UHGV virus genome: UHGV-1266211
Direction: 5' to 3' (one strand)
DNA length: 51,046 nt
Source of the DNA: a virus
In this document: positions 7,082-50,872 of the stretch, one piece after another
Layout: every line of letters begins with the position of its first letter
Position numbering within the stretch: position 1 is the first letter of the stretch
The notes under the pieces: model-generated
Told to the model about the DNA's origin: nothing
Database searches by the model: none
The model's input: the letters and a program-made list of their open reading frames with translations, nothing else
Program-made: the position numbers and the translations under genes

Positions 7082-7101
7082 ACAGCCAGCAAGGAATAAC
7101 T

Positions 7102-7395: not shown

Positions 7396-7645
7396 GGTCT
7401 TTTCGGCTCTCGCTGCGATATCCCAGGCGGTACATTTTCACGTAGGCTTTGCCGCGAGGAATGCCGCCTGTTTTGTTGAATCTCTGCTGGGCGCGGCGAT
7501 GGTGTTTTGCTTCAGGGCTGTTTGAACCTTTCCCGCCATTCGATCGAGAACTTGGGAGTTGCATTGGCTTTTGGCGTGAATAGAATTTACGTGCCCAGCA
7601 TGCTCCAAAGCCGATCATGCCTGTTTTCTTCGTATTACCTTTCAT
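7376..7645 (-). CDS. Putative first gene of the leftward early operon (N position); identity unsupported
   Basis: 89-aa basic, low-complexity ORF about 80 bp downstream of the OL-like operators; may be spurious. Confidence 0.25.
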   Translation of the reverse strand: MKGNTKKTGMIGFGACWARKFYSRQKPMQLPSSRSNGGKGSNSPEAKHHRRAQQRFNKTGGIPRGKAYVKMYRLGYRSESRKDLMRATQ

Positions 7646-7727
7646 CTCAATCCCCTCGTTTGCCCTTGTCGCCAGGCCAGCGGAACGTTTGAACTTGATG
7701 CGCTTAGTGTTTCTCGATGGGGTGATG

Positions 7728-7766
7728 ATAGCTAAGGCGATTTATTTTATCAATCGCTTAAACGAT
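7728..7766. promoter_or_regulatory. OL-like operators (two near-copies of ATCGC-N4-GCGAT)
   Basis: ATAGC-TAAG-GCGAT at 7728-7741 and ATCGC-TTAA-ACGAT at 7753-7766, same motif as the two perfect sites between cI and cro. Confidence 0.35.
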
Positions 7767-8094
7767 AATATTGTGATTTTGCCGATTATTATTTGATTTA
7801 TAAAGTGATTTATTTTTGTATGAGATGCGTGATATGCTCAAAAAAACACCAGGCGGGGATATTGATATGGGTTTAGGAATGGATATGTCACGTGATGAGC
7901 TGCTGGAAGATCGCGCTGCTTTCATGGCTGGCGAGATTGGCGGTGCAGTTGTCGAGTAGATAATCAACGGTGTGGTGATAAGTCGAGATGCGATAGTAGA
8001 TAGCTTGGAGACTAAGCGTCGCGCGGTTGGAAATGTGATTCACAAAGGAGTGTTGTGGGATGTCACTGCTATGGTGAGAAAAGGAATATGAAAA

Positions 8095-8109
8095 CCGGCA
8101 TAATGCCGG
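8095..8109 (-). terminator. Hairpin immediately after the stop of the cI-operon membrane protein
   Basis: ccggcat-a-atgccgg perfect palindrome; short T-run on minus strand. Confidence 0.4.
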
Positions 8110-8110
8110 T

Positions 8111-8743
8111 TTACTTTGATTTTTCCTGTTGGTGAAGTACTCGTGGAGTAGTTGGTTCTTGAGGTAATTGGATGATAACAGGTTGCTGCGCTACTGGTTG
8201 AACTACGGGCGGATCACTCTTCAAGGCAGAAACAAGACTAGGTAATGCAACGACAACCGCAATGATAACGCCAAAAATAGCAAGCCTAGTGGAAATACCT
8301 GATTGAATACCGCCAATCGCAGTGTTTATTCCTGTAATTTGCCCTTGTATACCTTCGAATTTGCCATTGATGGCTTTTACATCCCCATCAACGCTATCCA
8401 TTTTCCCTTCAATTTTAGAAGAAATAGAGCTAATAGATGAATTGAGCGATGCCAGCTGAACGTTCATATTCTCGCGTGACAAAGCCATTTCAGCTCTAAT
8501 CGAAGATGCAATGGACTCCATCTCCGCCTTATTGGCAGCTAGAAGTGCTTGCATTTCTTCACGGCTAACTGATGACATTTCATTTCCCCCATCAGTTTCA
8601 TTAGCTTCATCTGTTGATTTGATAAAGTTAGTATACATTTCTTCTTTATCGACGCGTAGTCTGTTTTGAACATTGGGGTACAGGTCATCTTTATCAATGC
8701 CAGAACCGCAGTCTGGGACAGCTTTGAGAGATGGGCCCATCAC
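8111..8743 (-). CDS. Coiled-coil protein with single C-terminal transmembrane helix (rexB/sieB-position gene)
   Basis: 210 aa; long heptad-like Ser/Ile-rich segment then IFGVIIAVVVALPSLVSAL; start overlaps upstream stop (ATGA). Confidence 0.7.
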   Translation of the reverse strand: MMGPSLKAVPDCGSGIDKDDLYPNVQNRLRVDKEEMYTNFIKSTDEANETDGGNEMSSVSREEMQALLAANKAEMESIASSIRAEMALSRENMNVQLASLNSSISSISSKIEGKMDSVDGDVKAINGKFEGIQGQITGINTAIGGIQSGISTRLAIFGVIIAVVVALPSLVSALKSDPPVVQPVAQQPVIIQLPQEPTTPRVLHQQEKSK

Positions 8744-15201: not shown

Positions 15202-15852
15202 ATGAGCGACAACCAGTTAGCACCTTGTTGGGAATTTCAGCCTTACCTTGCTGAAAGCAATGTTCGTCAGTTGTTAGCGGAAATTGCTAATGTACTCGAG
15301 CAATTGTACTACCACAAACACACACTGGACAGTAACTGGTCCGAAGGTGTAAGGGCTTATGATTGGGTCAGAAATCATTTGATTCAAAGTGAAGGGACAC
15401 TGCCGGGTCTGGAAATGGTTTCGAAGGGACTGGATTATGTGGTTGCGTTAAATAAAGTGCCGCTGCAGTTCTCCAAAGATTGCATTAATAACCCGAAGAA
15501 GAAGCATCGCCTTCTTCGAAATAGGGTGGAGCATGAGCAACTTTCATTGTTCGGTGAAACTGAAGCCGAGCAAGATATTACATGGCGGATCATCGCCGAA
15601 CCATTTTTATCCGATGAAGAAGATGGCGAGCTGGAATCAACATTGCCTCGCTGGGAAGTGGCTTTAGTTGGGTTTAACGCATATGGTGCCCAGATCAGTA
15701 TGGTTTCACACCAATCTACTGCTTCAGCGCCGCTTATGTCTCTTGATACCAACACTCTTCCGGATGAAGCTGAGATTGGCAAAGCCTCTCTTCGCCGCCG
15801 TAAAAAAGATCAAGATTTGGATGTGAGCAGTAATGGAACATCAAGTGAATGA
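15202..15852 (+). CDS. Unknown acidic protein, upstream partner of the HTH-ImmA fusion
   Basis: 216 aa, no recognisable motif; 20-bp overlap with the downstream gene. Confidence 0.6.
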   Translation: MSDNQLAPCWEFQPYLAESNVRQLLAEIANVLEQLYYHKHTLDSNWSEGVRAYDWVRNHLIQSEGTLPGLEMVSKGLDYVVALNKVPLQFSKDCINNPKKKHRLLRNRVEHEQLSLFGETEAEQDITWRIIAEPFLSDEEDGELESTLPRWEVALVGFNAYGAQISMVSHQSTASAPLMSLDTNTLPDEAEIGKASLRRRKKDQDLDVSSNGTSSE

Positions 15853-16936
15853 CTTTGCTGAGTATCGTGGGGATAAGCTCAAATTAGCCAGAATGGCTGT
15901 TGGGCTCTCCTGCGAAGAGTTAGCGGAGAAAATTGGTAAAACAAAACAATTCGTTAGCAAATTGGAAAAAGGGTTTAAACCATCAGAACAGTTGTTAGAA
16001 TTAATCTCATCTGCGCTGATGATTAAATCTGATTTCCTATTTACTGAACGAAAATATGCTTTAGAAAGCGATGTTTGCCATTTTCGGAGTAAAAAATCGA
16101 GAACCCAAACATTAACCAATAGTGTTCTGGCAAGGGCGGAGATTCTTAACATTATAATCTCTGCCGTTGAGGGAGAAATCGAGTTTCCTGATGTTTGCAT
16201 ACCTGAGCACCCCGGTGCTGAATTGCTGACTCCAAATGATATTGAACGTGTAGCGGAAGACTGCAGAAGAGCATGGAACTTAGGGCTGGGACCTATATCC
16301 TCAATGGTCAAACTGGCTGAGAGTTTGGGGGTTATTGTTGCTCATGTGACAGGAGTGGATGACCGCGTAGATGCTTTTACTGTTCATAACAACAGGCCAG
16401 TAATCATCCGAAATAACGTCAAAAAGAGTATATGCAGATTCCGATCAGATTTAGGTCACGAATTGGGGCACTTGGTTATGCACGAAGGTATAACCACAGG
16501 AGATAAAGTGACTGAATCGCAAGCGGATCGTTTTTCAAGCGCGTTGCTAGTTCCTCGATTGTCCTTTATTAAAGAGTTTCCCCGTATACGAGGAAGACAG
16601 TTCGATTGGAACGCCCTAGTTGAGTTTAAGCTTCGGTGGAAGATTAGTCTTAAAATGTGCATTTACCGAGCAACAACTCTAGGCCTGCTGACGCAGGAGC
16701 AGGCAAGAACAGGTTATATGCATTTGAACTCTAAAGGATATACGAAAGTTGAACCAGGAGATGAATTTATTCGCCCGGAAGAACCGAGTATGTTAGCTGA
16801 GGCGATTGAAATGCTGGATGATGCAACATGGATGAGCATTCTCATGAAAACTGGTTTAAGCCAGGAGTTGGTTAGGGAGTTATTCTCGGTAAACCGCCCA
16901 CTGTCAAATCCAAGAAATCTACTTCAACTGGTTTGA
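15833..16936 (+). CDS. HTH-XRE + ImmA/IrrE-family (COG2856) Zn-metallopeptidase fusion protein
   Basis: N-terminal ...LSCEELAEKIGKTKQFVSKLEKG HTH; HELGHLVMHE (HExxH) and downstream E in the peptidase domain. Confidence 0.85.
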   Translation: MEHQVNDFAEYRGDKLKLARMAVGLSCEELAEKIGKTKQFVSKLEKGFKPSEQLLELISSALMIKSDFLFTERKYALESDVCHFRSKKSRTQTLTNSVLARAEILNIIISAVEGEIEFPDVCIPEHPGAELLTPNDIERVAEDCRRAWNLGLGPISSMVKLAESLGVIVAHVTGVDDRVDAFTVHNNRPVIIRNNVKKSICRFRSDLGHELGHLVMHEGITTGDKVTESQADRFSSALLVPRLSFIKEFPRIRGRQFDWNALVEFKLRWKISLKMCIYRATTLGLLTQEQARTGYMHLNSKGYTKVEPGDEFIRPEEPSMLAEAIEMLDDATWMSILMKTGLSQELVRELFSVNRPLSNPRNLLQLV

Positions 16937-19565: not shown

Positions 19566-19699
19566 AGCCAGAAACGCTTGAGATACTCCGCGCGCGCTGG
19601 CAGCGCCTTCGCATTTATCGCTACCGGGGATCGGTGCTGGTGGATTATCGCATTCTTCGTAATTTTGTTCGTATCTATCATTCAGCAGGAGCAGCCTAA
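19562..19699 (+). CDS. Small protein (YlcG position)
   Basis: 45 aa between rusA and Q, as ylcG in DLP12. Confidence 0.35.
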   Translation: MKPETLEILRARWQRLRIYRYRGSVLVDYRILRNFVRIYHSAGAA

Positions 19700-20514
19700 T
19701 GAACCTCGAAAACACCGTGAAATATCACTTCGCCAAGTCGACGCTTATTAGCGACTCTCCGCGCGCCACTGGTTCAGATTCGCTGACCGGGACGGATGTC
19801 ATGGCGGCCATGGGCATGACCCAGGAACGTGCCGCCATGGGATACAGTGCCTTCCTCGGCAAGATGGGCATCAGTTACAACGATCGGGAGAGGGCGATTG
19901 AGTTGCTGTCTGAGTACGCGTTAACCAAATGCGATAAGGTTGCCGCGCTGCGCAAGCTGGACGATGCGGTTAAGCCACTGGTGATGCACCAGTTGGCCAC
20001 CTTCGCTTTTGAAGATTACTCCCGCAGCGCTGCGAGCGTTAAGCAGTGTGATTGTTGCAGCGGGCAGGGATTTATTGAGGCCGACGTGTTCACAATGAAA
20101 TCTCATTATTCAATGAGGATTCCTCAATGGGCGAAAGAGCTTGGTCAGTCACCGAGTGATTTCGAGGTTAAACGACAGGTTCGAGAGGTGGTTCGAGTGC
20201 TGTGCTCGAACTGCAAGGGGAAGAAGGTTGTCAGTTGTGCCTGCAATGATTGCCGGGGACGTGGGAAAGCCGTAGACCAGAAGGAAACGAAGAAACAGGG
20301 TGTGCCGGTTATGACTGACTGCAAGCGCTGCGGCGGGCGTGGATATGAACGCATTCCTTCAACTGAGGCCCACGCAGCTGTTTGCCAGATTACGGATGTA
20401 ATCAGCCTGGATACGTGGAAGAAGTCCGTTAAACCGTTCTATGATCAGCTGATTACGAAATTCGATATTGAAGAGGCATGGGCAGAAAACCAACTGAAAC
20501 AAATAACACGATAA
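19699..20514 (+). CDS. Late antiterminator Q-like protein
   Basis: 271 aa, multiple CxxC pairs (CDCCSG, CSNCKG, CACNDCRG, CKRCGGRG), directly upstream of the lysis genes. Confidence 0.75.
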   Translation: MNLENTVKYHFAKSTLISDSPRATGSDSLTGTDVMAAMGMTQERAAMGYSAFLGKMGISYNDRERAIELLSEYALTKCDKVAALRKLDDAVKPLVMHQLATFAFEDYSRSAASVKQCDCCSGQGFIEADVFTMKSHYSMRIPQWAKELGQSPSDFEVKRQVREVVRVLCSNCKGKKVVSCACNDCRGRGKAVDQKETKKQGVPVMTDCKRCGGRGYERIPSTEAHAAVCQITDVISLDTWKKSVKPFYDQLITKFDIEEAWAENQLKQITR

Positions 20515-24535: not shown

Positions 24536-26103
24536 ATTACAAAGCCGTCTGGAAACCTTTGCCGGGATCGCAATCGCTCTCCCTGAGTTGCCCGTGTAAC
24601 GAAATCCTCTACGAAGGTACGCGAGGCCCCGGTAAAACCGCCGCGCAACTGGCGCGCTTTCGTCGCCTGGTTGGTCTGGGCTATGGCTCGTTCTGGCGTG
24701 GCGTCATTTTCGATACCGAGTATAAAAACCTCACCGACATCATTACCCAGTCAAAGCGTATGTATCGCCTGTTTAATGACGGTGCACGCTATCTGGCGTC
24801 AGCATCTGAATTGCGCTGGGTATGGCCGACTGGCGAAGAGTTGCTGTTCCGCTTTGGGAAGGAAGAGGGGGATTACTGGGATTACCACGGTCAGGAGTTC
24901 CCGTTCATCGGCTTTAACGAGCTGACAAAGCAGCAGTCTGCTGAGTTCTACGAAATGATGTTCTCCTGCCGGCGCTCATCGTTCCGGCCGGAGAACTACC
25001 CGCTGGCTAACGGCGGTCTGTTGAAGCCAATCCCGCTCGAAACATTCAGCACGACCAACCCATTCGGCATCGGCCACACCTGGGTGAAGAAACGCTTCAT
25101 CGAGCCAGCGCCCCGCGGCACCATCATTCGTGAAACGCAGCAGGTGTTTAACCCGCAAACTGAGCGCGAAGAGGATGTGACGCTGACGCGCGTGGCTATT
25201 CACGGCTCGTTCAAAGAGAACCCGTATCTGGATCCCCAGTACATCGCAACGCTGATGGCCATCAAAGACCCGAACCGCCGCAAAGCTTGGGTAGAGGGCT
25301 CCTGGGATGTCACCAGCGGTGGGCGCTTTGACCACCTGTGGAATGCATCGCTGCACGTCATTAAGCCGTTCCGCATCCCGGATAGCTGGACGGTTGACCG
25401 TTCCCATGACTGGGGTGAGTCGAAGCCGTTCTCTAACCTCTGGTGGGCGCGAGCCGACGGTACTGCCGCAGAACTGCCTGATGGTCGCCAGTTCTGCCCG
25501 CCTGCCGGGTCGCTGATCCTGATTGGCGAGTGGTATGGCTGTCCACCTGACGAGCTGAACAAAGGGCTCAATATGAGCTCGACAAACGTCGCCAAGGGTG
25601 TGGCCTGGATTGATAAGCGGCTGATGGGCGAAGAGCTGCCTGAACCTGAAGAGATAAAACTCAATGGGATAACTCAGGGGCAACTGAACATCATGCCCGG
25701 TATCTGCAAAAAGGTTGTGCCCGGACCTGCTGACGGGGCTATCTACAACACCGGTGATGACGAATTATCTATTGCCCAGAAAATGGAATCCCAGGGCGTT
25801 AAATGGGTGCCATCCAACAAGAAGCCGGGTTCACGCGTGAACGGCGCGGCACTGTTTGCTGACATGCTGGAGGCCGTCATTGAGGGCAAGAAGCTGGAAT
25901 CAGGTATGCCAGAGAAACCAGCATTCTACGTGTTTGACTACTGCCGGGGCTGGATTAGCCGTGTTCCGGTTCTCGTTCGCGACAGTAAGAACCCTGACGA
26001 TGTAGACACACAGCAGGAAGATCACGATTGGGATGGCACGCGCTATGCCGTCCTACATTCACCGCCGAAGAAAGTCGGCAAAGTCACCAGCCTGAGGCTC
26101 TAA
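24532..26103 (+). CDS. Terminase large subunit
   Basis: Walker-A-like EGTRGPGKT near N-terminus; size and position. Confidence 0.75.
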   Translation: MNYKAVWKPLPGSQSLSLSCPCNEILYEGTRGPGKTAAQLARFRRLVGLGYGSFWRGVIFDTEYKNLTDIITQSKRMYRLFNDGARYLASASELRWVWPTGEELLFRFGKEEGDYWDYHGQEFPFIGFNELTKQQSAEFYEMMFSCRRSSFRPENYPLANGGLLKPIPLETFSTTNPFGIGHTWVKKRFIEPAPRGTIIRETQQVFNPQTEREEDVTLTRVAIHGSFKENPYLDPQYIATLMAIKDPNRRKAWVEGSWDVTSGGRFDHLWNASLHVIKPFRIPDSWTVDRSHDWGESKPFSNLWWARADGTAAELPDGRQFCPPAGSLILIGEWYGCPPDELNKGLNMSSTNVAKGVAWIDKRLMGEELPEPEEIKLNGITQGQLNIMPGICKKVVPGPADGAIYNTGDDELSIAQKMESQGVKWVPSNKKPGSRVNGAALFADMLEAVIEGKKLESGMPEKPAFYVFDYCRGWISRVPVLVRDSKNPDDVDTQQEDHDWDGTRYAVLHSPPKKVGKVTSLRL

Positions 26104-26107
26104 ACCC

Positions 26108-27511
26108 ATGCCTGATATTTCAACCCCCAATCTGGACTATGGGAACATGGTGCAGGCGTGGGACATCAACGACGCCCTGATGGGCGGCACGCTCTATATG
26201 CGACAACTGGGCGAGGCATATCTCCCGCGCTGGCCGAAAGAAGACAAAGAGGACTATAAAAAACGCCTCTCTGTGGCCACGCTTTTGCCCGCCTACGAAG
26301 AGACCATCAACCAGAACGTTGGCCGCGTATTCGCTGAGCCGATCCAACTGGGCGAGAACGTCCCGGATGCGCTGCGCGAGTTCTCGAAGAACGTTGACCT
26401 GGAAGGCAGTCGCCTCGATGTCTGGTCGCAGGCGTTCTTCAGCCTGGCAATGCAGTATGGCCTTTCGCACGCTCTGGTGGATTATCCCCGGGTGGACGCC
26501 GAAAAGGTGAAGACCAAGGCGGATGAAAAGGCTATCGGCGCGCGGCCGTACGTCACCATGCTAAATCCCCGTCAGGTGATCGGCTGGAAGTCAAAGATAA
26601 CCGGCGGCAAGGTGGTGCTCACCGAACTGCGCATCAAAGAGGTGGTAGTCGAAGACGGCGATGATTTCGGGCAAACAAAGGTCGAGCAGATTCGACTGCT
26701 GACGCCCGGGCAGGTGCAGATTTACCGCAAGGCCACTGGTGCCGACGGCCAGGCGAACTGGACGCTGCACGAGGAATGGCAAACATCCCGCAGGGATATT
26801 ACCCTGGTTACGCTCTACACCAAGCGCACTGGGTTTATGTGCGGTTCTCCGCCGCTGTTGAACATGGCGCTGTTGAATGTGAAGCACTGGCAGAGCCAGA
26901 GCGAGCAGGACAACATTCTGCACGTCGCGCGCGTCCCTCTGCTCACGGTATTCGGGCTAGAGGATGGGCAGGAACTGGTAATTGGCTCTTCGTCTGCAAC
27001 TCAGTTCTCCGATCGACAGAAACAGGGATTGGAATATGTCGAGCATACTGGAACCTCAATTAGTGCCGGTAAAGAGTCGCTAACCGACCTGGTGGAGCAG
27101 ATGCGCCAGGCAGGCGCGAAACTGCTGCGCACTGACAACACCTCAACCAAGTCTGTTGACCAGACCTCAGAAGAGAAGATGCAGGAGCAGTCACCGCTCT
27201 ACACCATGGCAACCAGCCTAGAGGATGCGATCGACAATATCCTGCAGATTATGGCTGAGTACATCGGTGAATCCGAAGGTGGTAACGTCGATGTCCGCAC
27301 CGAGCTGGATGTCGAGTCGAAAGAGTTCAATCCTCCTGCTGCACTGGCCATTCAGTCGCTACGTCAGGGCGGTGACCTTCGCCGCATAGATGCGATTAAA
27401 GCGCTGCAGAAGCTTAACCTGATTGATGCAGACGCAGACCCAGAAAAGGTCCTGGACGAGTTATTGGCTGAATCCTCCTCGCTGGATACCAGAACGATAG
27501 GCGAGGTGTGA
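26108..27511 (+). CDS. Portal protein (putative)
   Basis: 467 aa between terminase and head-morphogenesis protein. Confidence 0.6.
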   Translation: MPDISTPNLDYGNMVQAWDINDALMGGTLYMRQLGEAYLPRWPKEDKEDYKKRLSVATLLPAYEETINQNVGRVFAEPIQLGENVPDALREFSKNVDLEGSRLDVWSQAFFSLAMQYGLSHALVDYPRVDAEKVKTKADEKAIGARPYVTMLNPRQVIGWKSKITGGKVVLTELRIKEVVVEDGDDFGQTKVEQIRLLTPGQVQIYRKATGADGQANWTLHEEWQTSRRDITLVTLYTKRTGFMCGSPPLLNMALLNVKHWQSQSEQDNILHVARVPLLTVFGLEDGQELVIGSSSATQFSDRQKQGLEYVEHTGTSISAGKESLTDLVEQMRQAGAKLLRTDNTSTKSVDQTSEEKMQEQSPLYTMATSLEDAIDNILQIMAEYIGESEGGNVDVRTELDVESKEFNPPAALAIQSLRQGGDLRRIDAIKALQKLNLIDADADPEKVLDELLAESSSLDTRTIGEV

Positions 27512-27512
27512 T

Positions 27513-28616
27513 ATGGCACGCACCGTCAATGACCGCCTGCAGGACGAGACCATAGCGCATGGCCTTTATGTGACGCGCTACGGCACCGGCGTCGCCCGGC
27601 GCATGGTCGCGTTGCTGAATAGGATGGATGCTGACCTGGCCGCAAAACTGCTGGTGCTGCTGGACGGAAAGCGCGCTGATACCTATAGCGCCCGTCGTCT
27701 GGCATCGCTGCTGGCTGGCGTGCGCGACCTGAATCAGCAGGCCTATGAACCGGTTAATGCTGCGCTGACGCGCGAACTGACGCGCTACGTTGAATATGAG
27801 ACCGGGTATCAGCTGGACCTGTTCAGCAGCATCATCCCTAAACAGATCCTCAAGCATGTGCCGCTCCAGAGCATTGCGGCAGAACAGGTTTACGCCTCAG
27901 CAGTGGCGCAGCCCTTTCAGGGGCGGTTGCTGAAAGAGTGGAGTCAGAAGCTTGAATTGGATCGGCTGGACAAAATCACCAACGCTGTACGCTCCGGTTT
28001 CCTCCAGGGCGAAACGGTAGAGCAGATTGTCCGGCGCGTAGCGGGTACGCCGCAGAGAAATCGCGAGGACGGGGTGATCAACACATCCCGTCGCGACCTG
28101 GCGGTGGTGACCCGCACCGCGGTGAATCACATGGCCGCCACGGCGCGTCAGGAATTCGCCCAGGCAAATAGCGATATCGTGAAGGCCAAACAGTGGTCCT
28201 CAACCCTGGATACGCATACCAGCCAGTGGTGCATCATCCGCGACCGCAAACTCTATACGCTCGATGGCAAGCCGCTGGGGCATGAAATTCCCTACCTACG
28301 CGGGCCGGGAAAAATCCATTTTCTATGCAGGTCCTGCGAAATCCTGCTCACGAAGTCGTGGGAAGAATTGCAGATAGCGTCAGGCGAGCTGAGTAGCGCC
28401 ACACGCGCCTCAATGGACGGCCAAGTACCAGCGCATACCAGCTACGCCGATTGGCTCACCCGGCAGCCATACGCGCGGCAGGAGCAGGTGCTGGGCGTTA
28501 CCCGCGCCATGATACTTCGGGACGGCAAAATCACCGTGCCGGAGATGTTCAACGATGCCGGGGAGTTCCTGACCCTGGACGAACTGCGCCGCGTGGATGC
28601 ATCGGCTTTTGAATAA
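27513..28616 (+). CDS. Head morphogenesis protein (Mu gpF / SPP1 gp7 family)
   Basis: ...TSQWCIIRD ... HFLCRSCE... characteristic C-terminal Cys pattern. Confidence 0.8.
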   Translation: MARTVNDRLQDETIAHGLYVTRYGTGVARRMVALLNRMDADLAAKLLVLLDGKRADTYSARRLASLLAGVRDLNQQAYEPVNAALTRELTRYVEYETGYQLDLFSSIIPKQILKHVPLQSIAAEQVYASAVAQPFQGRLLKEWSQKLELDRLDKITNAVRSGFLQGETVEQIVRRVAGTPQRNREDGVINTSRRDLAVVTRTAVNHMAATARQEFAQANSDIVKAKQWSSTLDTHTSQWCIIRDRKLYTLDGKPLGHEIPYLRGPGKIHFLCRSCEILLTKSWEELQIASGELSSATRASMDGQVPAHTSYADWLTRQPYARQEQVLGVTRAMILRDGKITVPEMFNDAGEFLTLDELRRVDASAFE

Positions 28617-28636
28617 CTGAATAAGGTAATAAAACA

Positions 28637-29101
28637 ATGACTCAACATATTGGCGTGAAGCTCATCAATGCTTACCCGATGACCCGTCTGGCATATAACG
28701 ACTTTCGTGGTTGGGAGTTACCAAGTGACGAAAACGGAAGTGATGAAGGTTATCTCGTCGAGTATCTGGATGGCGGAAAGCCAAATACCGATCGCTTCAA
28801 CGGGTATGTGAGCTGGAGTCCGAAAGATGTGTTCGACAAAGCCTACCGACCAGTGGCGGGGCTTAGCTTCGGACTGGCTGTCGAAGCCCTGAAATCAGGC
28901 AAGCGTGTCACCCGCGCAGGCTGGAACGGCAAGGGCCTGTGGCTTGAGCTGGTCCAGCAGTCGCCATCTGTGGACCTGCCGTACATTCGTTTAATTTATC
29001 CGGTGCCGGGCAATGGTGCTATGCCATACCCAAATGGCGCTCGCGTGCCTTGGGCACCAAGCCAAACCGACGTCTTGGCTGATGACTGGCAAATTCTCTA
29101 A
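28637..29101 (+). CDS. DUF2829-like protein (Tad2-like candidate)
   Basis: ...GLSFGLAVEALKSGKRVTRAGWNGKGLWLEL... resembles the DUF2829 core motif. Confidence 0.5.
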   Translation: MTQHIGVKLINAYPMTRLAYNDFRGWELPSDENGSDEGYLVEYLDGGKPNTDRFNGYVSWSPKDVFDKAYRPVAGLSFGLAVEALKSGKRVTRAGWNGKGLWLELVQQSPSVDLPYIRLIYPVPGNGAMPYPNGARVPWAPSQTDVLADDWQIL

Positions 29102-29124
29102 ACCAGTTGCTTGGGGGGTGGTCT

Positions 29125-29334
29125 ATGCGAGATGACGATTTTCACCATGTGGGCGATGGCCGCGGTAAGCGCCGAGTGTTCGTTAACGGCAACGAGGTCA
29201 AACGCTGCATATGGGCGGATGTTAAGCGAGGAATCGCATGCTTCTATCCATATCCACTCCGGGTCCACAAGCGCAAGCGGGATGAGGTCTATTCCCGCAA
29301 GCTACGCGGCGTAGTAACCGTCGAATTTATCTAA
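29125..29334 (+). CDS. Hypothetical small basic protein
   Basis: 69 aa. Confidence 0.4.
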   Translation: MRDDDFHHVGDGRGKRRVFVNGNEVKRCIWADVKRGIACFYPYPLRVHKRKRDEVYSRKLRGVVTVEFI

Positions 29335-29442
29335 CAGGCTTCCTCCGGGTGGCCTTTTTTATGCCTGCCGCTGAGCGGATGCGACGCGGTGCCCGGGTCG
29401 GATGACCCATTACGTATGGCCGGAAGGCTGGAGCAAAAAACA

Positions 29443-30195
29443 ATGAAACTGAAACTTGATGCTAACGGAAATGTGGTCGTTGAAAACGGTATGCCTGTGT
29501 ACATCCATGATGATGGCAAAGAGATCCCGTTCGATGCGGTCGCAGCGATGACCAAAATCACCTCACTGAATGGCGAGGCGAAAACTCACCGCGAAGCGAA
29601 GGAAGCGGCGGAAGCCAATCTCGCGAAATTCTCGGGCATCACCGACCCGGCCAAGGCGCTCGAAGCCCTGGAGATGATGACCAAAATCGACCAGAAAAAA
29701 CTGATCGATGCTGGTGCCGTTGACCAGGTAAAGGCGGAGATCACCAAAGTTTTCCAACAGCAGCTGGACGAAGCGAACAGCAAGACCCAGCAGCTGGAAA
29801 CTCAACTCTACGACGAGATGATCGGCGGCCGCTTCGGTGGTTCGAAATTCATCTCCGAGAAGATGGCGATCCCGGCTGAGTTCGTGCGCTCCCACTTCGG
29901 GCAGAACTTCAAAATCGAAGATGGCAAGGTCGTGGCTTACGACGGGCAGGGCAATAAGGTGTTCTCCCGTACCAAACCCGGTGAACTGGCTGGCTTCGAT
30001 GAAGCGCTGGAATCTCTGGTCGAGTTGCATCCGCAGAAAGACTACATCCTCAAAGCGTCCGGCAACAGCGGCGGTGGTTCTCACCAGTCGCAGCACCAGG
30101 CCGGGCAAAAAACCATGAAACGCGATGCGTTTGATTCCCTGGATAACGCTGGCAAGCAAGCAGCGCTGAAAGACGGCGTCAGCATCGTCGATTAA
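29443..30195 (+). CDS. Scaffolding protein (putative)
   Basis: Alpha-helical, charged, directly upstream of the coat protein. Confidence 0.55.
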   Translation: MKLKLDANGNVVVENGMPVYIHDDGKEIPFDAVAAMTKITSLNGEAKTHREAKEAAEANLAKFSGITDPAKALEALEMMTKIDQKKLIDAGAVDQVKAEITKVFQQQLDEANSKTQQLETQLYDEMIGGRFGGSKFISEKMAIPAEFVRSHFGQNFKIEDGKVVAYDGQGNKVFSRTKPGELAGFDEALESLVELHPQKDYILKASGNSGGGSHQSQHQAGQKTMKRDAFDSLDNAGKQAALKDGVSIVD

Positions 30196-30212
30196 ATCGA
30201 AAGGAGCCATAA

Positions 30213-31352
30213 ATGGCAGGCAATACCCTTACTGGTCTGATCCCGACCATCTATACCGCGCTGGACGTAGTGTCCCGCGAGCAAACTGGTTTTATTCCTG
30301 CGGTGGCGCGTGACGCGAAAGCGGATGCTGCTGCAAAAGACCAGACCGTACGTGCGCCAGTCGCACCTGCAGCCACTACTGAAGATATTGTCCCTGGTCC
30401 GTCAGCACCTAATTCTGGCGACCAGACCATCGGTGGTGTGGATGTCAAAATCACCAAATCCAAGATGGCCCCGGTCAAATGGAATGGTGAAGAGCAATTG
30501 GCTTTGGGCCCGGCTGGTACCTACAACACCATCCTGGCTGACCAGTTCAAGCAGGCTTTCCGAGCGCTGGCGAATGAAGTGGATGCAGACCTCGCTGCGC
30601 TGTACCTCAACTCCTCCCGCGCTGTTGGCGTGCCGAAGAATACCCCGTTCAGCATCAAAGACGATCTGACTGATGCTGCGTTGGCGCGTCAAATCCTGAC
30701 CGATAACGGTGCGCCGACTACTGATTTGCGTATGGTGCTGGGTGGCGAAGCGATGGCATCCATCCGTGGTAAACAGGCTGTACTCTTCAAAGCGAACGAA
30801 GCGGGAACCGACCAGCTGCTGCGTGAAGGTGTTATCGGTCGCATCATGGGCTTCAACCTCCACGAATCCTTCAGCATCAAGCGTACCGCGAAAAGCGCTG
30901 CTGCTGGCTATAAGGTCAATGGCGAGAAGAAAGAGGGCGATATCATCATCGCTATCTCTGCCGGCACCGGCGGTATTGCTGCAGGTACTGCGGTGAAGTT
31001 CGCTGGTGATGACAATCAGTATCTGGTTGTTGCGGCTACGTCTTCCACTATCACCATCAGCGCGCCGGGGCTCCGTCAGGATCTGGCAGACCAGGCTGAT
31101 GTCACTGTGTTGAGCGAATTTGTACCGAACATGGCGTTTGACCGCGGGGCATTCCTGCTGGCCAGCCGTACCCCGGCGATGCCTGAAGGTGGCGATACTG
31201 CTGATGACGTCATGAATGTGACCGACCCGGTATCTGGCATCACCTTCCAGGTGGCGCTGTACCGCCAGTACCGTCAGGTGCGTTATGAAGTGGGCCTAGC
31301 ATGGGGTGTGGCTGCTGTGGCGCCACGTCATTCCGCCATCATCATGGGTTAA
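30213..31352 (+). CDS. Major capsid protein (P22 coat-protein-like)
   Basis: 379 aa, AAGGAG RBS, position after scaffold, followed by a strong terminator. Confidence 0.8.
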   Translation: MAGNTLTGLIPTIYTALDVVSREQTGFIPAVARDAKADAAAKDQTVRAPVAPAATTEDIVPGPSAPNSGDQTIGGVDVKITKSKMAPVKWNGEEQLALGPAGTYNTILADQFKQAFRALANEVDADLAALYLNSSRAVGVPKNTPFSIKDDLTDAALARQILTDNGAPTTDLRMVLGGEAMASIRGKQAVLFKANEAGTDQLLREGVIGRIMGFNLHESFSIKRTAKSAAAGYKVNGEKKEGDIIIAISAGTGGIAAGTAVKFAGDDNQYLVVAATSSTITISAPGLRQDLADQADVTVLSEFVPNMAFDRGAFLLASRTPAMPEGGDTADDVMNVTDPVSGITFQVALYRQYRQVRYEVGLAWGVAAVAPRHSAIIMG

Positions 31353-31356
31353 CCCA

Positions 31357-31379
31357 GGGGGCTTCGGCCCCTTTGTTTT
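31357..31379 (+). terminator. Rho-independent terminator after the coat gene
   Basis: ggggc-ttcg-gcccc plus TTTGTTTT. Confidence 0.6.
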
Positions 31380-31390
31380 CAGGAGGCCCA

Positions 31391-31591
31391 ATGGCCGGAT
31401 TAACCAAAGAGCAGCGCGCGCAGCGTGAGGCTGAAAAGCTTGCCGCGCAGAACGGCGCTGAACAAACAGGTATTGAGCTGGTGGCTATGATGCGAGATAC
31501 CCCGGAGTTCCCCGGCGGTCCGCTGAGCGCTGAGGTTCACCCTGACGAAGTCGATAACTGGCTGGCGCTGGACTGGCGACTGGAGGAGTAA
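31391..31591 (+). CDS. Hypothetical small head protein
   Basis: AGGAGG RBS, 66 aa. Confidence 0.45.
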   Translation: MAGLTKEQRAQREAEKLAAQNGAEQTGIELVAMMRDTPEFPGGPLSAEVHPDEVDNWLALDWRLEE

Positions 31592-31593
31592 CT

Positions 31594-31905
31594 GTGAGCG
31601 ATAAAGATATTGAGCAGGAAATTCAGGCCAAAGGCTTGAACGCGCCGCGCGTTACGCTGGGCGAGTTGAAGGCGAATATTAAGCATGCCGAGATCGTGAA
31701 GCACGTATCCGTCACCGGGCAGGTGCTTCGCTGGGCGGTCATCACCACTCAAAACGGATTCGCAGTAACAGGGAATCCGTCGTGCTCAGTTTCCTCCGCT
31801 AACGACAACGCTGAAATTGGCGAGAAAATTGCTATTGAGAACGCCGAAAGCGAGTTGTGGGCGTTGATGGGATATGCGTTAAAGCAGAAGCTTTTCGAAG
31901 CCTGA
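31594..31905 (+). CDS. Gp49-like small structural protein (tentative)
   Basis: GTG start; ...VLRWAVITTQNGFAVTG...AEIGEKIAIENA... Confidence 0.45.
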   Translation: MSDKDIEQEIQAKGLNAPRVTLGELKANIKHAEIVKHVSVTGQVLRWAVITTQNGFAVTGNPSCSVSSANDNAEIGEKIAIENAESELWALMGYALKQKLFEA

Positions 31906-31918
31906 GAGGAGCTCTGAG

Positions 31919-32401
31919 ATGATTAATGCCGATCCCCATTCGTCTGACTTCAACAGCTATGCCAGCGTTGGTGATCTGCGCGCGTTCGCTGCGGGGCGCG
32001 GATACACCATCCCTGCTGAAGATGGCGAATGCAGCCAGATGCTGATGCAGGCAATGGACTTTCTGGAAGGGAAGGCCTGGCGCGGTCAGCGTTCCAGCGC
32101 ATCACAGCCTCTATCCTGGCCGCGTTCCGGCGTGCGCTTCGATGGTGTTGACCTGTCGAATGATGCGATTCCACAGCGCCTGATTGATGCTCAATGTCGC
32201 CTGGCCATCGAATCGCAGGAGATTGACCTCACCCCGTCGGTCGCTGGCGGTGGGGCGGTTACGATGGAGCGCGTCGAGGGTGCGGTAACAGTCCAGTATG
32301 AGCCGGGAACGAATAAAGCTTCTCCGTCATTCCCATGGTTCTATTCCGCACTGCGCGGGCTTGTAGTGGGCGGCAACCAGGTCCGGGTCGAAAGGGGGTA
32401 G
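31919..32401 (+). CDS. Head-tail connector / head completion protein (putative)
   Basis: Position in head-tail joining block. Confidence 0.45.
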   Translation: MINADPHSSDFNSYASVGDLRAFAAGRGYTIPAEDGECSQMLMQAMDFLEGKAWRGQRSSASQPLSWPRSGVRFDGVDLSNDAIPQRLIDAQCRLAIESQEIDLTPSVAGGGAVTMERVEGAVTVQYEPGTNKASPSFPWFYSALRGLVVGGNQVRVERG

Positions 32402-32402
32402 C

Positions 32403-32756
32403 ATGGCAATCGACTATCGCCGCATGCGCGCGACCGCGACCCGACTGCTGACCGAGAACGGGAAGGCATATCAGCTTACCCGCGGCGGCGGCACCATCCG
32501 TGACCAGTTCGGCAAAGAGGTCACCACCCCGGCCATTACCGCGACCGTAACCGGTGTTATCACCGAATACTCCTCCCGCGAAATCGACGGTTCCCTGATC
32601 GCCACCGGCGACAAGAAGCTGGCGGCCACTTTCGAGACGGAAGTGCGCATCGATGACCGCATCGAAATCGACGGCAAAAAATGGCGCGTGGTGCAGCCGA
32701 ATCCGGTTAAGCCTGCCGATGTGCTGATTTCCTACAACATCCAACTGAGGGCGTAA
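32403..32756 (+). CDS. Head-tail joining protein (putative)
   Basis: 117 aa, position. Confidence 0.45.
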   Translation: MAIDYRRMRATATRLLTENGKAYQLTRGGGTIRDQFGKEVTTPAITATVTGVITEYSSREIDGSLIATGDKKLAATFETEVRIDDRIEIDGKKWRVVQPNPVKPADVLISYNIQLRA

Positions 32757-32758
32757 CT

Positions 32759-33358
32759 ATGGCAAGTTCTGCTAATCAGCCGTTCCTGGCTGCTATTCAG
32801 CTGTTCGTTGATGGCTCAAAGCAGGAGATTGACGAGGCGGTGCGCCGGACGGGTATCAAAATCCTCGCTCAACTGGTTGAGATGTCCCCGGTGGGCCAAC
32901 CGGATATCTGGCAGGTCAACCAGACCGCGACGGCGTACAACACTGCGGTGCGGGAGCATAACGCGACCCTGCGTGATGACCCGGCTAATCTGACCAAATC
33001 AGGACGACTTAAGCGCGGCCTGCGCGTCAACGACTCGATGGACATCAAAAAGCCTGAGGGCTATGTCGGCGGGCGGTTTAAAAACAACTGGTATGTGGGC
33101 TTTGACAGCCAGCCAAGCCAATCCAACGACACCCCCGACGCTTCCGGCCAGGGTTCCAACTCCCGCGGTCTGGCAGTGCTCGAGGTGTTCCGGGTAGGGC
33201 AGGTCAGCTCGATTTTCTTCACCAATAATCTGCCATATGCGGCAGCACTGGAGAACGGGCATTCCGGCCAGGCACCCGGCGGCATGGTGGGCATCACTGC
33301 GCTGGATGCCGCGCAGTTGTTCCGTGAGGCAATGAGCGAGGTGCGCAATGGCCAGTGA
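32759..33358 (+). CDS. Tail completion protein (HK97 gp10-like, putative)
   Basis: 199 aa, position. Confidence 0.45.
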   Translation: MASSANQPFLAAIQLFVDGSKQEIDEAVRRTGIKILAQLVEMSPVGQPDIWQVNQTATAYNTAVREHNATLRDDPANLTKSGRLKRGLRVNDSMDIKKPEGYVGGRFKNNWYVGFDSQPSQSNDTPDASGQGSNSRGLAVLEVFRVGQVSSIFFTNNLPYAAALENGHSGQAPGGMVGITALDAAQLFREAMSEVRNGQ

Positions 33359-47829: not shown

Positions 47830-47845
47830 ATTGCCTGGAGAAAAT

Positions 47846-49432
47846 ATGCTTTATAACACCGGCACCATCGCCATTAATGGAAATACCGCCACCGGGACGG
47901 GTACAAACTGGACGGCACCGGCCAGCCAGGTCCGCGCTGGCCAGACGATCATCGTCATGTCTAACCCGGTGCAGATGTTCCAGATTTCATCTGTGAACAG
48001 CGCCACGTCAATGACGGTTACGCCTGCTGCTTCCCCGGCGCTGAGCGGCCAGAAGTATGGAATCCTGGTGTCCGATAACATCTCTGTCGACGGACTGGCG
48101 CAGGCGATGTCGCAGCTCATCAAAGAGTATGACGAGAACATTGGCGCGTGGGAGACATTCGCCACTACCTCAGCAAACCAGACCATCACCGTTACCATCA
48201 ACGGAACCTCCGTTAATATTCCAAGTATTGGCGCGCTTGCCAGAAAGGGGTCCAACAACGATATCACCGAGCTGAAAGGGCTCACAACTGCGCTTTCTGT
48301 TGCACAGGGCGGGACTGGGGCAAAGACCGAAGCTGACGCTCGCACAAACCTCGGTTTAGGAAGTAGCGCGACGAAGGACGTCGGAACGGCGGCCGGAACC
48401 GTGGCAGCCGGGGATGATTCGCGGTTGAATACTGTCGATAAAAAAACAGGGGGAAATGTTACCGGCAGTTTGATGGTAACTCAGGGAAATAGTATTGGAG
48501 TATCCACGCAGGAAGGTGGTGATAAGGCTGTTAAGCTATACAACATTACAGGGGATGGGACTGTCGGAAGTTATGTAAACGCTGTGGGAGGAGCTTGGTA
48601 TAATGGGAACTGGTCTCTTGGCGGCGTTCGGGGGAGTGGGACTAATTTAGACAGAGCGCAGTTAAATGTAAATAGCGGAACTGGTACGGCGGGTTCATTT
48701 TTATTTTACCCTGATGAGAGATTCAAATCATCTTCGTGTGGAGCAAATGGAGCTGGATATGGTGGCTCCTGGTCAGACATTAATACATGGCAAAGAAATA
48801 TATCTTTTTTTAGGGGTAATGTTGCAGTTAATAATGATGCTGGTTTCATTCCCTTTGCCCGCTGGCATAGTCAATGCAGTGGCGGATATTCTTCAACGGT
48901 AGGGCTTGGTTCTATAGCTACCGGGCCTAGTCCGTGGGCGGATGTGGCAATAACAACACTTGGGGATGGTGGCTCTGCCGGTCAGCGTATATTTCAATTC
49001 ACGACAGCAAACGGTGATATATATGCCAACGCTGGTGGGAATCTTTCCGGGAACTATATTTTCCAGAAGCAGCCTAACTGTGACATTACGCTGAAGCACG
49101 ATATTAAATATGATGATGGTTATCAGTCATACGAGAATATCAGGAAATTCCTGCCAGCAACTTACGTCTACAACGATGACCCTCGTGAGAGAGTTCGCCG
49201 AGGTGTAATCGCTCAGGACGTCATGAAGATTGATAGTGAGTACGTAAAGCTGGTCCCTGCTGCGCCAAAGTTTGATAGTGAAGGAAACAGGGTTGATGCT
49301 GATGATACGTTGGCACTGGATAACAACGTCATCATGCTTGATACCGTGCTGGCATTGAACTACGTCATTAAACAGCTGGAGACAACACAGAAAGAGCTCC
49401 AGGAGCTTAAGCTAAAAATAGCGGCATCATGA
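47846..49432 (+). CDS. Side tail fiber protein (C-terminal part inside the invertible segment; C-terminal intramolecular chaperone-like domain)
   Basis: GGAG RBS, ATG 47846; constant N-terminal part to ~48408; C-terminal ...NCDITLKHDIKYDDG... chaperone-like tail. Confidence 0.8.
   Translation: MLYNTGTIAINGNTATGTGTNWTAPASQVRAGQTIIVMSNPVQMFQISSVNSATSMTVTPAASPALSGQKYGILVSDNISVDGLAQAMSQLIKEYDENIGAWETFATTSANQTITVTINGTSVNIPSIGALARKGSNNDITELKGLTTALSVAQGGTGAKTEADARTNLGLGSSATKDVGTAAGTVAAGDDSRLNTVDKKTGGNVTGSLMVTQGNSIGVSTQEGGDKAVKLYNITGDGTVGSYVNAVGGAWYNGNWSLGGVRGSGTNLDRAQLNVNSGTGTAGSFLFYPDERFKSSSCGANGAGYGGSWSDINTWQRNISFFRGNVAVNNDAGFIPFARWHSQCSGGYSSTVGLGSIATGPSPWADVAITTLGDGGSAGQRIFQFTTANGDIYANAGGNLSGNYIFQKQPNCDITLKHDIKYDDGYQSYENIRKFLPATYVYNDDPRERVRRGVIAQDVMKIDSEYVKLVPAAPKFDSEGNRVDADDTLALDNNVIMLDTVLALNYVIKQLETTQKELQELKLKIAAS
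48378..48408. repeat. Left inverted repeat / inversion crossover site
   Basis: acgtcggaacggcggccggaaccgtggcagc, exact reverse complement of 50189-50219; encodes ...GTVAA in both fiber frames. Confidence 0.65.
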
Positions 49433-49448
49433 ATCCTGAGCATTCAAC

Positions 49449-49479
49449 TGCAGCCCGTTCCGGCAAATTACGGGCTGCA
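49449..49479. terminator. Palindromic hairpin between the two convergent fiber cassettes
   Basis: tgcagcccg-N13-cgggctgca, 9-bp perfect stem. Confidence 0.45.
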
Positions 49480-49485
49480 AATTAT

Positions 49486-50188
49486 TCAGCTTCCTTGTTC
49501 CAGTTTTTCCACCTTACTCGTCAAATTATCGACCCTAACCATTAGGGCCAGAATTGCCTCATGGTGCAAAGCTGCAGCAACCCCGTAAGTATCGACAGTT
49601 TTCACATCAGGAATAACTGTTCCGTCCTCCAGAGTAATATCATAGCCACCTTTAACAGCTTCGGGAAATACTTGCTCAACGTCCTGTGCAATAAAGCCGT
49701 AACCCGTAGTTTCATTGTCTATACGCTCCCAAAAGCAGCCTTTAATGGCTTTCATCTTTATGAGAGGATCGGATATGCGCGCGATGTCTTTTTTTATACG
49801 CGCATCTGAGAGCGATACCCATTGACCACCAGTGCCACGACCATCAGGGTAAAACATAAACGATGCGGCTGCCCCACCAGATTCCGCTATCACATTTAAC
49901 TGAACACGATCAAGTGGAGTCGAGCCGCTCCGTATTGCACCTAGCGCCCATGAACCGCTATACCACTTACCAACTATCTGGTTTACATAATTGCCCTGAG
50001 ATGAATCATTTGTCGTATTATTCATCTCAATGGAGTTATCACCGCCACTTCCCTTTCTGACCCCTAAACCACCGCCGGCATTTGTATGCCAGTCAGTTGC
50101 TCCGCCACCAACACCGTTGATCGTCACAGCAGATGAAATCGTCCCCCCCGTTTTACCGTTAACGCTTCCAAGCCGTGAATCGTCGCCA
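49486..50188 (-). other. Silent alternative tail-fiber C-terminal cassette (no own start; expressed only after inversion)
   Basis: Frame continuous with the right inverted repeat; shares ...GDDSRL..., ...W Y.G.W.LG..R.G.T.LDR.QLNV... with the active C-terminus; ends with ...SLSDARIKKDI... chaperone motif. Confidence 0.7.
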
Positions 50189-50219
50189 GCTGCCACGGTT
50201 CCGGCCGCCGTTCCGACGT
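50189..50219. repeat. Right inverted repeat / inversion crossover site
   Basis: Exact reverse complement of 48378-48408. Confidence 0.65.
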
Positions 50220-50314: not shown

Positions 50315-50872
50315 GTGAAAAATATGCAAATTGGCTATGTCAGAGTGTCAACAAATGACCAAAATACAGATCTCCAGCGCCAAGCTCTCGAACGCGCAGG
50401 ATGTGAACAGGTTTTTGAAGAAAAAATGAGCGGGACGGTAGCGAACCGGCCAGCGCTCAAAAAGCTTCTGCGGACTCTGAATGCGGGCGATACACTGGTG
50501 GTGTGGAAGCTGGACAGGATAGGCCGCAACGTTCTGCATGCGCTGTTGATGTTCCAGCAGTTACAGGAAAAGGGTATCAACTTCCGCAGTATTACCGATG
50601 GCGTGGATCTCAAAACAGCCAGCGGCCGCTATAACTTTCGTAACATCCTTTCCGCAGCACAATATGAATCTGATCTTAATAGCGAACGTACCTTAGCAGG
50701 GCTGGCCGTAGCCAGGGCAAAATGGCGAGTTGGTGGTCGCAGGCCTAAGTTCACGGATGAGCAATGGCGGGAAATGGGGGAGCGGATGGCAACCGGTGAA
50801 TCACGACAAAGCGTATCAAAAACGTATGGAGTAGGGCTCTCAACTCTGTATAAAAAGTTTCCAGCTAGCTGA
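50315..50872 (+). CDS. pin: Serine recombinase, DNA invertase of the Hin/Gin/Cin/Pin family
   Basis: MQIGYVRVSTNDQNTDLQ...TLVVWKLDRIGRN... catalytic Ser, C-terminal HTH ...GLSTLYKKFPA; collinear with Pin/Hin. Confidence 0.9.
   Translation: MKNMQIGYVRVSTNDQNTDLQRQALERAGCEQVFEEKMSGTVANRPALKKLLRTLNAGDTLVVWKLDRIGRNVLHALLMFQQLQEKGINFRSITDGVDLKTASGRYNFRNILSAAQYESDLNSERTLAGLAVARAKWRVGGRRPKFTDEQWREMGERMATGESRQSVSKTYGVGLSTLYKKFPAS

Follow-up and report, generated by a model that had tools for sequence, protein, structure and literature searches.

Which role does the protein play that is encoded between the head genes of UHGV virus genome UHGV-1266211? The question is raised by an open reading frame (ORF) at positions 28637-29101 of this stretch of DNA (51,046 nucleotides, called the window in the following), for which the initial annotation had proposed a protein of 154 amino acids (aa) with a second half that resembles DUF2829, i.e., the domain of the anti-Thoeris protein Tad2. 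The ORF, including the peptide that had been quoted from it (AVEALKSGKRVTRAGWNGKGLWLEL), is present at exactly these coordinates on the + strand. Its product consists of two domains, i.e., an N-terminal module (N-module in the following) and a C-terminal Tad2-like domain. We consider it likely that this protein is a counter-defence sponge of the Tad2 family, probably directed at 3'cADPR, which combines its sponge domain with an assembly-type N-module and is encoded within an accessory cassette of a late operon.

That is, the Tad2-like domain would sequester an ADP-ribose-derived alarm nucleotide made by TIR proteins, most probably the 3'cADPR of type I Thoeris, such that the effector ThsA would never be activated and the phage would escape abortive infection. 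The role of the N-module would lie in domain-swapped dimerisation or in assembly, by homology to the N-terminal domain of the sponge RyR Tad. The protein would be made together with the capsid proteins and alongside a second sponge of the Acb4 family. As a type, the protein is already known, i.e., it is one more predicted Tad2 sponge in a family of thousands. The only lead that it opens is the N-module.

The C-terminal Tad2-like domain and its predicted pocket

Residues 77-154 are a bona fide Tad2/DUF2829 domain. The Pfam profile PF11195 ('Tad2-like') matches with 72.4 bits (gathering cutoff 25; E 4.6e-20) and is covered at positions 2-73 of 73, such that the proposed DUF2829 core in the second half of the protein is clearly recovered by a profile search. 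Among the PDB sequences, phmmer finds SPO1 Tad2 (8sme, E 5e-11) and furthermore ModTad2 (9eib), SptTad2 (8wjd) and HgmTad2/AcrIIA7 (8kbi and 9kzr). The same picture emerges from structure prediction. We modelled the protein as a monomer with AlphaFold2 based on 36 family sequences (mean predicted local distance difference test score, pLDDT, 84.9). Within the C-terminal domain (C-domain), the model shows a helix (78-86), four strands (91-93, 102-106, 116-120, 136-138), another helix (143-147) and a final strand (151-153). This is the element order of Tad2, i.e., helix alpha1, an antiparallel beta-sheet, a short C-terminal helix and the last strand. When compared with the PDB by Foldseek, the C-domain superposes on Tad2, with only Tad2 structures among the top matches (probability 1.00; target-normalised template modelling, TM, scores of 0.74-0.82 to the chains 8v3e, 8wje and 8smf). 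Helix alpha1, the tetramerisation element of Tad2, is conserved in the alignment with SPO1 Tad2 (SFGLAVEALKSGK versus SFGEALEVLKQGM). The C-domain most likely assembles into a homo-oligomer of the Tad2 type, which in Tad2 is a homotetramer with ligand pockets at the protomer interfaces.

The residues of the pocket can be traced in the same way. SPO1 Tad2 holds 1''-3' gcADPR by W25, W73, N26 and D79, with T78, S76, H71, D67, I63 and T65 as helper contacts (Yirmiya et al., bioRxiv 10.1101/2023.05.01.538930). Our alignments place W25, N26, W73 and D79 (as well as S76 and T78) at W96, N97, W139 and D145 (as well as S142 and T144) of the protein studied here. W96, N97, W139 and D145 are invariant in 36 relatives (alignment A1), and S142, Q143 and T144 are conserved in at least 90% of them.

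To which ligand this pocket is tuned can be approached via the tested homologs. Closest to the C-domain are Tad2_82, Tad2_71 and SPO1 Tad2 with 41-42% identity. Tad2_82 and SPO1 Tad2 inhibit type I Thoeris, and Tad2_71 inhibits types I, II and IV (Hadary et al., bioRxiv 10.1101/2025.08.24.671296, Table S2). Within the set of Hadary et al., all five tested homologs that carry an SQTD motif and have unambiguous assay rows inhibit type I Thoeris, while the type-II-specific MoTad2, Tad2_76 and Tad2_68 carry SVSD, SSSD and SIGD instead. This comparison of motif and phenotype covers unambiguous 'y y y' rows only; rows of Table S2 with transformation 'n' followed by 'y' are ambiguous. The protein studied here reads PSQTDVLADDW at the respective stretch. 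3'cADPR (1''-3' gcADPR) of type I Thoeris is thus our best guess for the ligand, if from small numbers.

The least conserved part of the domain is its central loop. In the close family, the mean identity to our protein is 0.36 for the loop, compared to 73-75% for the flanks of the Tad2 core and 0.79 for the N-module, and loop lengths range from 21 to 49 aa. One relative (P0020) is 100% identical in its N-module and only 7% identical in the loop. Such a mosaic of an identical N-module and an unrelated loop points to loop exchange by recombination. In HgmTad2, the equivalent loop region forms a second pocket for cyclic dinucleotides, which in HgmTad2 and SptTad2 is provided by an insertion of 35-41 aa after beta2 (Li et al., bioRxiv 10.1101/2023.11.15.567273). 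The spacing of the two pocket tryptophans is 43 aa in the protein studied here versus 48 in SPO1 Tad2 and 66 in HgmTad2, and thus the HgmTad2-type insertion is absent. We therefore rejected a cyclic-dinucleotide pocket of the HgmTad2 type, for which the loop is too short.

A mobile N-terminal module shared by sponge families

The initial annotation had left an N-terminal extension of about 60 aa without explanation. This extension turns out to be a separate, recurrent module, and it is longer than assumed, i.e., 73-76 aa. The AlphaFold2 model shows a compact domain (E10-16, H17-24, E37-43, E57-62, H63-69, with E for strands and H for helices; pLDDT 90-96), and its core motifs are IGxK, PMT, GYLVxY and GYxSWSPxxVFxxAY. 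Neither Pfam (also at E<=10 with 25 diverse copies) nor NCBIfam provides a match to the module, and no sequence match was found by phmmer or profile in a PDB set without the RyR Tad structure.

To assess how widespread the module is, we searched 1.84 billion cluster representatives exhaustively with phmmer using aa 1-75 as query, which yields 1,498 proteins at E<=1e-3 and 843 at E<=1e-10. In most of the best 150 (110), the module is N-terminal; 14 proteins carry it at the C-terminus and 14 internally, and 12 consist essentially of the module. Its Pfam partners among these 150 are dominated by Tad2-like (52), PF21825 (36) and PF13876 (20); the Acb2/Tad1 hairpin, WDGH and AP2+HNH occur once each. 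PF21825 is the Sequestin family of 3'cADPR sponges, which was found through its fusion to Tad2 and Acb4 (Tal et al., bioRxiv 10.1101/2025.07.12.664507), and PF13876 is the Acb4 family of anti-CBASS sponges (Chang et al., bioRxiv 10.1101/2024.12.30.630793). The partners are also combined with each other and in different order. We find N-module+Tad2+PF21825 (P0123, P0177), PF13876+N-module (P0136, P0139), PF13876+N-module+PF21825 (P0194) and, in Pseudomonas phage inbricus, N-module+PF13876+PF21825. A modular nature is also suggested by PHROG 9467, the N-terminal part of which matches aa 1-73 of our protein, and the C-terminal part the PF13876 protein of the same prophage.

A hidden Markov model (HMM) built from 150 representative modules recovers gp49 of phage N4 (E 1e-29), Sequestin fusions (E 2e-36) and a Lockin fusion (E 4e-7), while it does not match the helical N-terminal extension of HgmTad2. 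In the part of the Sequestin homolog table of Tal et al. covered here, the motifs of the module occur about 90 times, and within the respective part of their supplementary tables a divergent copy heads two Lockin homologs (bioRxiv 10.1101/2025.07.12.664507). The text of that study does not mention the module and none of its tested candidates carries it. It is likewise absent from the tested Tad2 proteins of Hadary et al., whose set leaves out PF21825-fused Tad2 proteins (bioRxiv 10.1101/2025.08.24.671296). In summary, the N-module is a distinct mobile module, with fusion partners from six sponge families (Tad2, Sequestin, Acb4, Acb2/Tad1, Lockin and RyR Tad). What this analysis adds is that the N-terminal extension belongs to a module which is widespread (about 1,500 cluster representatives), goes together with sponge domains and has no name so far. 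Its identity with Lockin, Acb5, Sequestin or TadIV-1 was rejected based on published descriptions and sequences.

We also observed fusions of the N-module to regions of about 100-200 aa without Pfam assignment, for example in gene 06 of Rhodoferax phage P26218 (L007 2501-3046) and in P0135 and P0192. Following the fusion logic by which Sequestin was found, these regions are candidates for undescribed sponge or anti-defence domains.

Concerning the role of the module, RyR Tad is the informative case. RyR Tad is gp68 of Pectobacterium phage CB1; its N-terminal fragment (1-86) is inactive against type I Thoeris while the C-terminal fragment is sufficient, and in the crystal structure the N-terminal domain is a domain-swapped dimer in which beta1 completes the five-stranded sheet of the partner (bioRxiv 10.64898/2026.06.04.730250). 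Our HMM aligns positions 2-73 with aa 5-69 of translated CB1 gp68 (21.7 bits, conditional E 3e-8). Because of this end-to-end match to a domain-swapped domain, the N-module is most likely a dimerisation or assembly domain common to many sponges rather than a ligand binder. In the AlphaFold2 monomer models, aa 1-9 with the conserved I5-G6-x-K8 are unpaired outside the core, which is compatible with a swapped strand. With 27 invariant positions in the close family of our protein, the conservation of the module is above that of the Tad2 domain. Since the same subfamily is joined to structurally unrelated partners, the conserved surfaces are not partner-specific interfaces, and we infer that they serve either the association of the module with itself or the contact to an external ligand or partner that all of these proteins have in common.

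Insertion into the head module of a lambdoid prophage

The window is a complete lambdoid prophage with integrase, RecE/RecT, Q, lysis, head and tail genes and an invertase. The coordinates of all features are collected in Table 1. Its closest phage record is HK639, with 84% nucleotide identity over the head genes. Collinear blastn blocks pair the window positions 26001-28612, 29348-31592 and 31927-32998 with 2167-4775, 4910-7138 and 7148-8219 of HK639, respectively. The Tad2-like gene is thus a moron, i.e., part of an accessory cassette in the late operon, with flanking genes that are 83% identical to those of HK639. The cassette lies between the MuF stop codon and an HK639-type terminator, which is kept directly after the insert. 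The hairpin of this terminator is predicted at 29336-29355 and followed by a U-run; its stem contains an internal mismatch and was missed by a simple terminator scan. With a GC content of 0.533, the insert is slightly poorer in GC than the MuF gene (0.596) and the scaffold and capsid genes (0.546-0.568). The simplest reading is that the Tad2-like gene is co-transcribed with the late operon that is antiterminated by Q.

Table 1. Positions of the Tad2-like gene, its domains and motifs, and of further features within the window.
Feature	Coordinates	Strand	Basis or remark
Two-domain protein gene (N-module and Tad2-like domain)	28637..29101	+	ATG start, 154 aa plus stop; ORF list
N-terminal module, aa 1-73	28637..28855	+	Compact beta-alpha-beta-beta-alpha domain without family model
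Tad2-like (DUF2829, PF11195) domain, aa 77-154	28865..29098	+	Pfam, PDB phmmer, Foldseek
W96-N97 codons, GWNGKG motif (SPO1 Tad2 W25/N26)	28922..28927	+	Alignments; invariant in A1
Hypervariable central loop, aa 107-136	28955..29044	+	Alignment A1
W139...S142-Q143-T144-D145 codons, PWAPSQTD motif (SPO1 Tad2 W73, S76, T78, D79)	29051..29071	+	
Accessory ('moron') insert with Tad2-like gene and small ORF	28613..29347	+	735 bp replace a 134-bp spacer of HK639
MuF-like head-morphogenesis gene	27513..28616		Upstream of the Tad2-like gene; PF04233 E 2e-7; phrog_241 E 4e-155
Small ORF, co-inserted	29125..29334 (ATG, 69 aa) or from TTG 29107 (75 aa)	+	phrog_3540
Intrinsic terminator, GC-rich hairpin and T6	about 29336-29360	+	Aligns with the annotated HK639 terminator 4901-4922
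Scaffold-like gene	29389..30195		Downstream of the Tad2-like gene; DUF6651 E 4e-66; phrog_206 'head scaffolding' E 3e-24
Major capsid gene	30213..31352		After the scaffold-like gene
Acb4-family protein gene, 103 aa, second inserted counter-defence candidate	31594..31905	+	PF13876 E 6e-15
Q gene	19699..20514		
RmrT, Rosmer defence pair	15202..15852	+	PADLOC E 2e-26
RmrA, Rosmer defence pair	15833..16936	+	Helix-turn-helix and M78 peptidase; PADLOC E 8e-107

As initially annotated, the gene is located between the MuF-like and the scaffold gene. It is not a direct neighbour of the latter, since a small ORF and the terminator intervene. The product of this small ORF matches phrog_3540 over aa 7-75 (E 3.5e-33) and has no match in Pfam or NCBIfam; we note it as a candidate for a further accessory or anti-defence gene within the same 735-bp cassette.

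A second insertion concerns the Acb4-family gene, where window positions 31593-31926 replace 9 bp of HK639 (blastn); the gene is flanked by the head-tail adaptor gene and by a small ORF that follows the capsid gene. Capsid and tail proteins have been reported as triggers of Thoeris and CBASS sensing or as loci of escape from it, e.g., the capsid vertex protein for type IV Thoeris and the tail fibre for type II Thoeris. The placement of sponge genes among capsid genes would be consistent with such a role of capsid or tail proteins. We thus see a temperate lambdoid prophage with genes from two different sponge families (Tad2-like and Acb4-like) that are located in separate morons of the head module.

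The protein itself matches phrog_872 over its full length (E 2e-60). It has 4,928 homologs at E<=1e-5. Near-identical proteins are found in Enterobacter, Citrobacter, Klebsiella and Raoultella, and homologs in these genera and in E. coli go by the name 'DUF2829 domain-containing protein'. Within complete E. coli genomes, the same locus is present as prophage in 12/5,426 with 98-99% identity, where RefSeq already uses this label. Kapi1 and Louie, two P22-like phages, carry the two-domain gene at another moron site of the late operon, namely between Rz and the small terminase gene.

Two further observations concern the prophage as a whole. Besides the predicted counter-defence genes, it encodes the Rosmer defence system, such that both sides of the conflict are found within one prophage. 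At its end, a DNA invertase of the resolvase family (50315-50872, +) adjoins two oppositely oriented tail-fibre genes (47831-50196) that carry endosialidase-chaperone domains, an arrangement that suggests an invertible host-range switch.

Alternative readings and known systems

Several observations weigh against a type I Thoeris sponge with an assembly-type N-module. Within the pocket, the water ligands H71 and D67 of SPO1 Tad2 are not conserved (gap/P138 and G134, respectively), which is a minor deviation. About half of the tested Tad2 homologs are inactive against the tested systems, among them Tad2_73 and Tad2_78, which carry the GWNGKG motif (Hadary et al., bioRxiv 10.1101/2025.08.24.671296). 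Furthermore, published Tad2 screens cover almost only single-domain proteins of 60-108 aa, with some fusions deliberately excluded. Since other signals are bound by Tad2 proteins in place of gcADPR or on top of it (His-ADPR, N7-cADPR, cUMP/cCMP or cyclic dinucleotides), 'gcADPR sponge' is the likeliest but an uncertain description of the specificity. For the N-module, RyR Tad is a remote match (about 34% identity, 21.7 bits), and it lacks the polar and aromatic loop residues of YNxxRGWxLPxDEN and DGGxxN that are strongly conserved in the subfamily of our protein, such that a function beyond dimerisation is possible. Finally, a consensus scan for sigma-70-like promoters in 28300-29700, which weak or atypical promoters could escape, found none where 1.0 is expected, and the expression timing is therefore read from operon position only.

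These points lead directly to the question whether the sponge is correctly assigned but its ligand is not, or not only, 3'cADPR. The signal of type II Thoeris (His-ADPR), of type IV Thoeris (N7-cADPR) or of Pycsar (cUMP/cCMP), or an unknown signal, might be bound, with the loop tuning a second pocket. We rate this as possible, if tentative, given that Tad2 homologs inhibit Thoeris I, II and IV as well as Pycsar in various combinations, that Tad2_71, one of the closest tested relatives (41%) with a comparably short loop ('IELQ...PYI...RVPW'), is active against each of these three types, and that the central loop (21-49 aa) is swapped between near-identical proteins at the very place where HgmTad2 has its second pocket. 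On the other hand, the SQTD and GWNGKG motifs match those of homologs active against type I, and the 43-residue spacing of the tryptophans leaves no room for the cyclic-dinucleotide insertion of HgmTad2. More doubtful appears to us that the N-module itself is an active counter-defence unit, i.e., a signal-binding sponge, a direct inhibitor of defence proteins or a guard against systems that sense sponges. It is supported by the fusion to at least 6 sponge families, a guilt-by-fusion signal like the one through which Sequestin was discovered, by the conservation above that of partner domains (27 invariant positions; 0.79 versus 0.36-0.75 identity) and by the occurrence of the module alone in 12/150 proteins. 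Moreover, unrelated partner folds exclude a partner-specific interface as the source of the conserved surface, and the RyR Tad N-domain, as one divergent copy, was assayed against type I Thoeris only. Identity with one of Tad3-Tad8, which bind ThsB or ThsA directly, appears less likely on indirect evidence, since the module has no PDB match and the preprint that annotates Tad3 in the same hotspot describes the RyR Tad N-domain as a fold of unknown function (bioRxiv 10.64898/2026.06.04.730250). If the module were active, proteins of the N4 gp49 type, including the one studied here, would be dual-function inhibitors like Acb4-Tad2 or Acb4-Sequestin, and the module would bind a signal as one more family (the seventh or eighth), inhibit a defence protein directly or shield the phage against Panoptes-type sponge sensors.

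Two other readings do not share the assignment to anti-signalling sponges. The position between the MuF-like and scaffold genes, with which the gene would be co-transcribed, could indicate a structural, head-assembly or capsid-packaged cargo protein. We consider this very improbable and rejected it on comparative grounds: HK639 builds the same head without the gene and with 83% identical flanks, homologs are located outside of structural modules in N4-like and P22-like phages, and the CB1 virion components that are annotated as confirmed by mass spectrometry do not include the module-bearing gp68. An AcrIIA7-like anti-CRISPR directed at type II CRISPR-Cas9 is extremely improbable. It is suggested by names, i.e., DUF2829 was first reported in AcrIIA7, the PDB entries 8kbi and 9kzr are named accordingly, and homologs in the phages Louie, Huey and Mimir124 are annotated as 'anti-CRISPR protein', a label that derives from AcrIIA7. 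E. coli and its relatives are not normally known to carry type II CRISPR-Cas systems. Li et al. (bioRxiv 10.1101/2023.11.15.567273) were unable to reproduce an inhibition of Cas9 by HgmTad2/AcrIIA7 or further Tad2 homologs, be it in vitro or in vivo, and Yirmiya et al. argue for an anti-Thoeris family. We thus rejected the anti-CRISPR reading, since its founding activity is not reproducible. A Tad2-family sponge that probably targets 3'cADPR therefore stays our preferred reading. Within it, the fusion pattern marks the N-module as belonging to the anti-signalling toolkit of phages, and an account of its role, be it in assembly, in avidity or as a novel activity, would close a gap in three recent papers.

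How does this reading compare to known systems? The founder of the family, SPO1 Tad2 (Gp34.65; 8SME/8SMF/8SMG), shares the full-length domain with about 42% identity, the predicted fold, the gcADPR-contact residues W, N, W, D, S and T, and a short beta2-beta3 loop. In contrast to our protein, it is a single domain of 89 aa from a lytic Bacillus myovirus, while our protein is encoded in a moron of an enterobacterial lambdoid prophage, has an additional N-module of 73 aa and a loop that is shorter by 5 residues, and lacks the equivalents of H71 and D67. Among the tested proteins, Tad2_71 and Tad2_82 are the closest relatives of the C-domain (41% identity); both are single-domain metagenomic proteins, and Tad2_71 resembles our protein in its short loop and its RVPW..SQTD ending. 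HgmTad2/AcrIIA7 (8KBI-8KBM, 8WJC) combines a DUF2829 domain and its gcADPR pocket with an N-terminal extension as well, but this extension consists of helices and has no relation to the N-module, and the 41-aa insertion forming the cGG/cGAMP pocket is absent from our protein.

With regard to the architecture, the best counterpart is gp49 of Escherichia phage N4 (YP_950527, 160 aa) along with its homologs in G7C/N4-like phages. It shows the identical combination of N-module and PF11195 domain (E 8e-24) with about 43-50% identity to our protein; a functional test of N4 gp49 was not found in the literature. N4 also encodes an Acb4-family protein (gp48, E 9e-35) and thus the same gene pair as the prophage. 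In N4, gp48 and gp49 are adjacent within an early/middle anti-signalling hotspot beside the gene of the virion RNA polymerase, while the pair of the prophage occupies two late insertion sites of the head module. The protein studied here is thus a convenient E. coli representative of an architecture that published sponge screens have largely bypassed.

RyR Tad (CB1 gp68) likewise combines a gcADPR sponge domain with a preceding, divergent N-module, for which it provides the only experimental data. Its sponge domain differs, since it has an all-helical fold like RyR Repeat12 and not that of Tad2. Finally, modular sponges such as Acb4-Tad2 (Pm86), Acb4-Sequestin (YH6/Ab09) and Tad2-Sequestin demonstrate that a Tad2 or other sponge domain works when joined to another small domain, a modular build that our protein shares. 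The Acb4-Tad2 protein of Pm86, a Pasteurella phage, inhibits both Thoeris I and CBASS (Tal et al., bioRxiv 10.1101/2025.07.12.664507) and is also a tblastn match of our protein. Both parts of these fusions are proven sponges, while the Tad2-like domain and N-module combined here have predicted roles. The N-module is in turn found inside of such sponge-sponge fusions, namely with Acb4 and Sequestin in phage inbricus and with Tad2 and Sequestin in P0123 and P0177.

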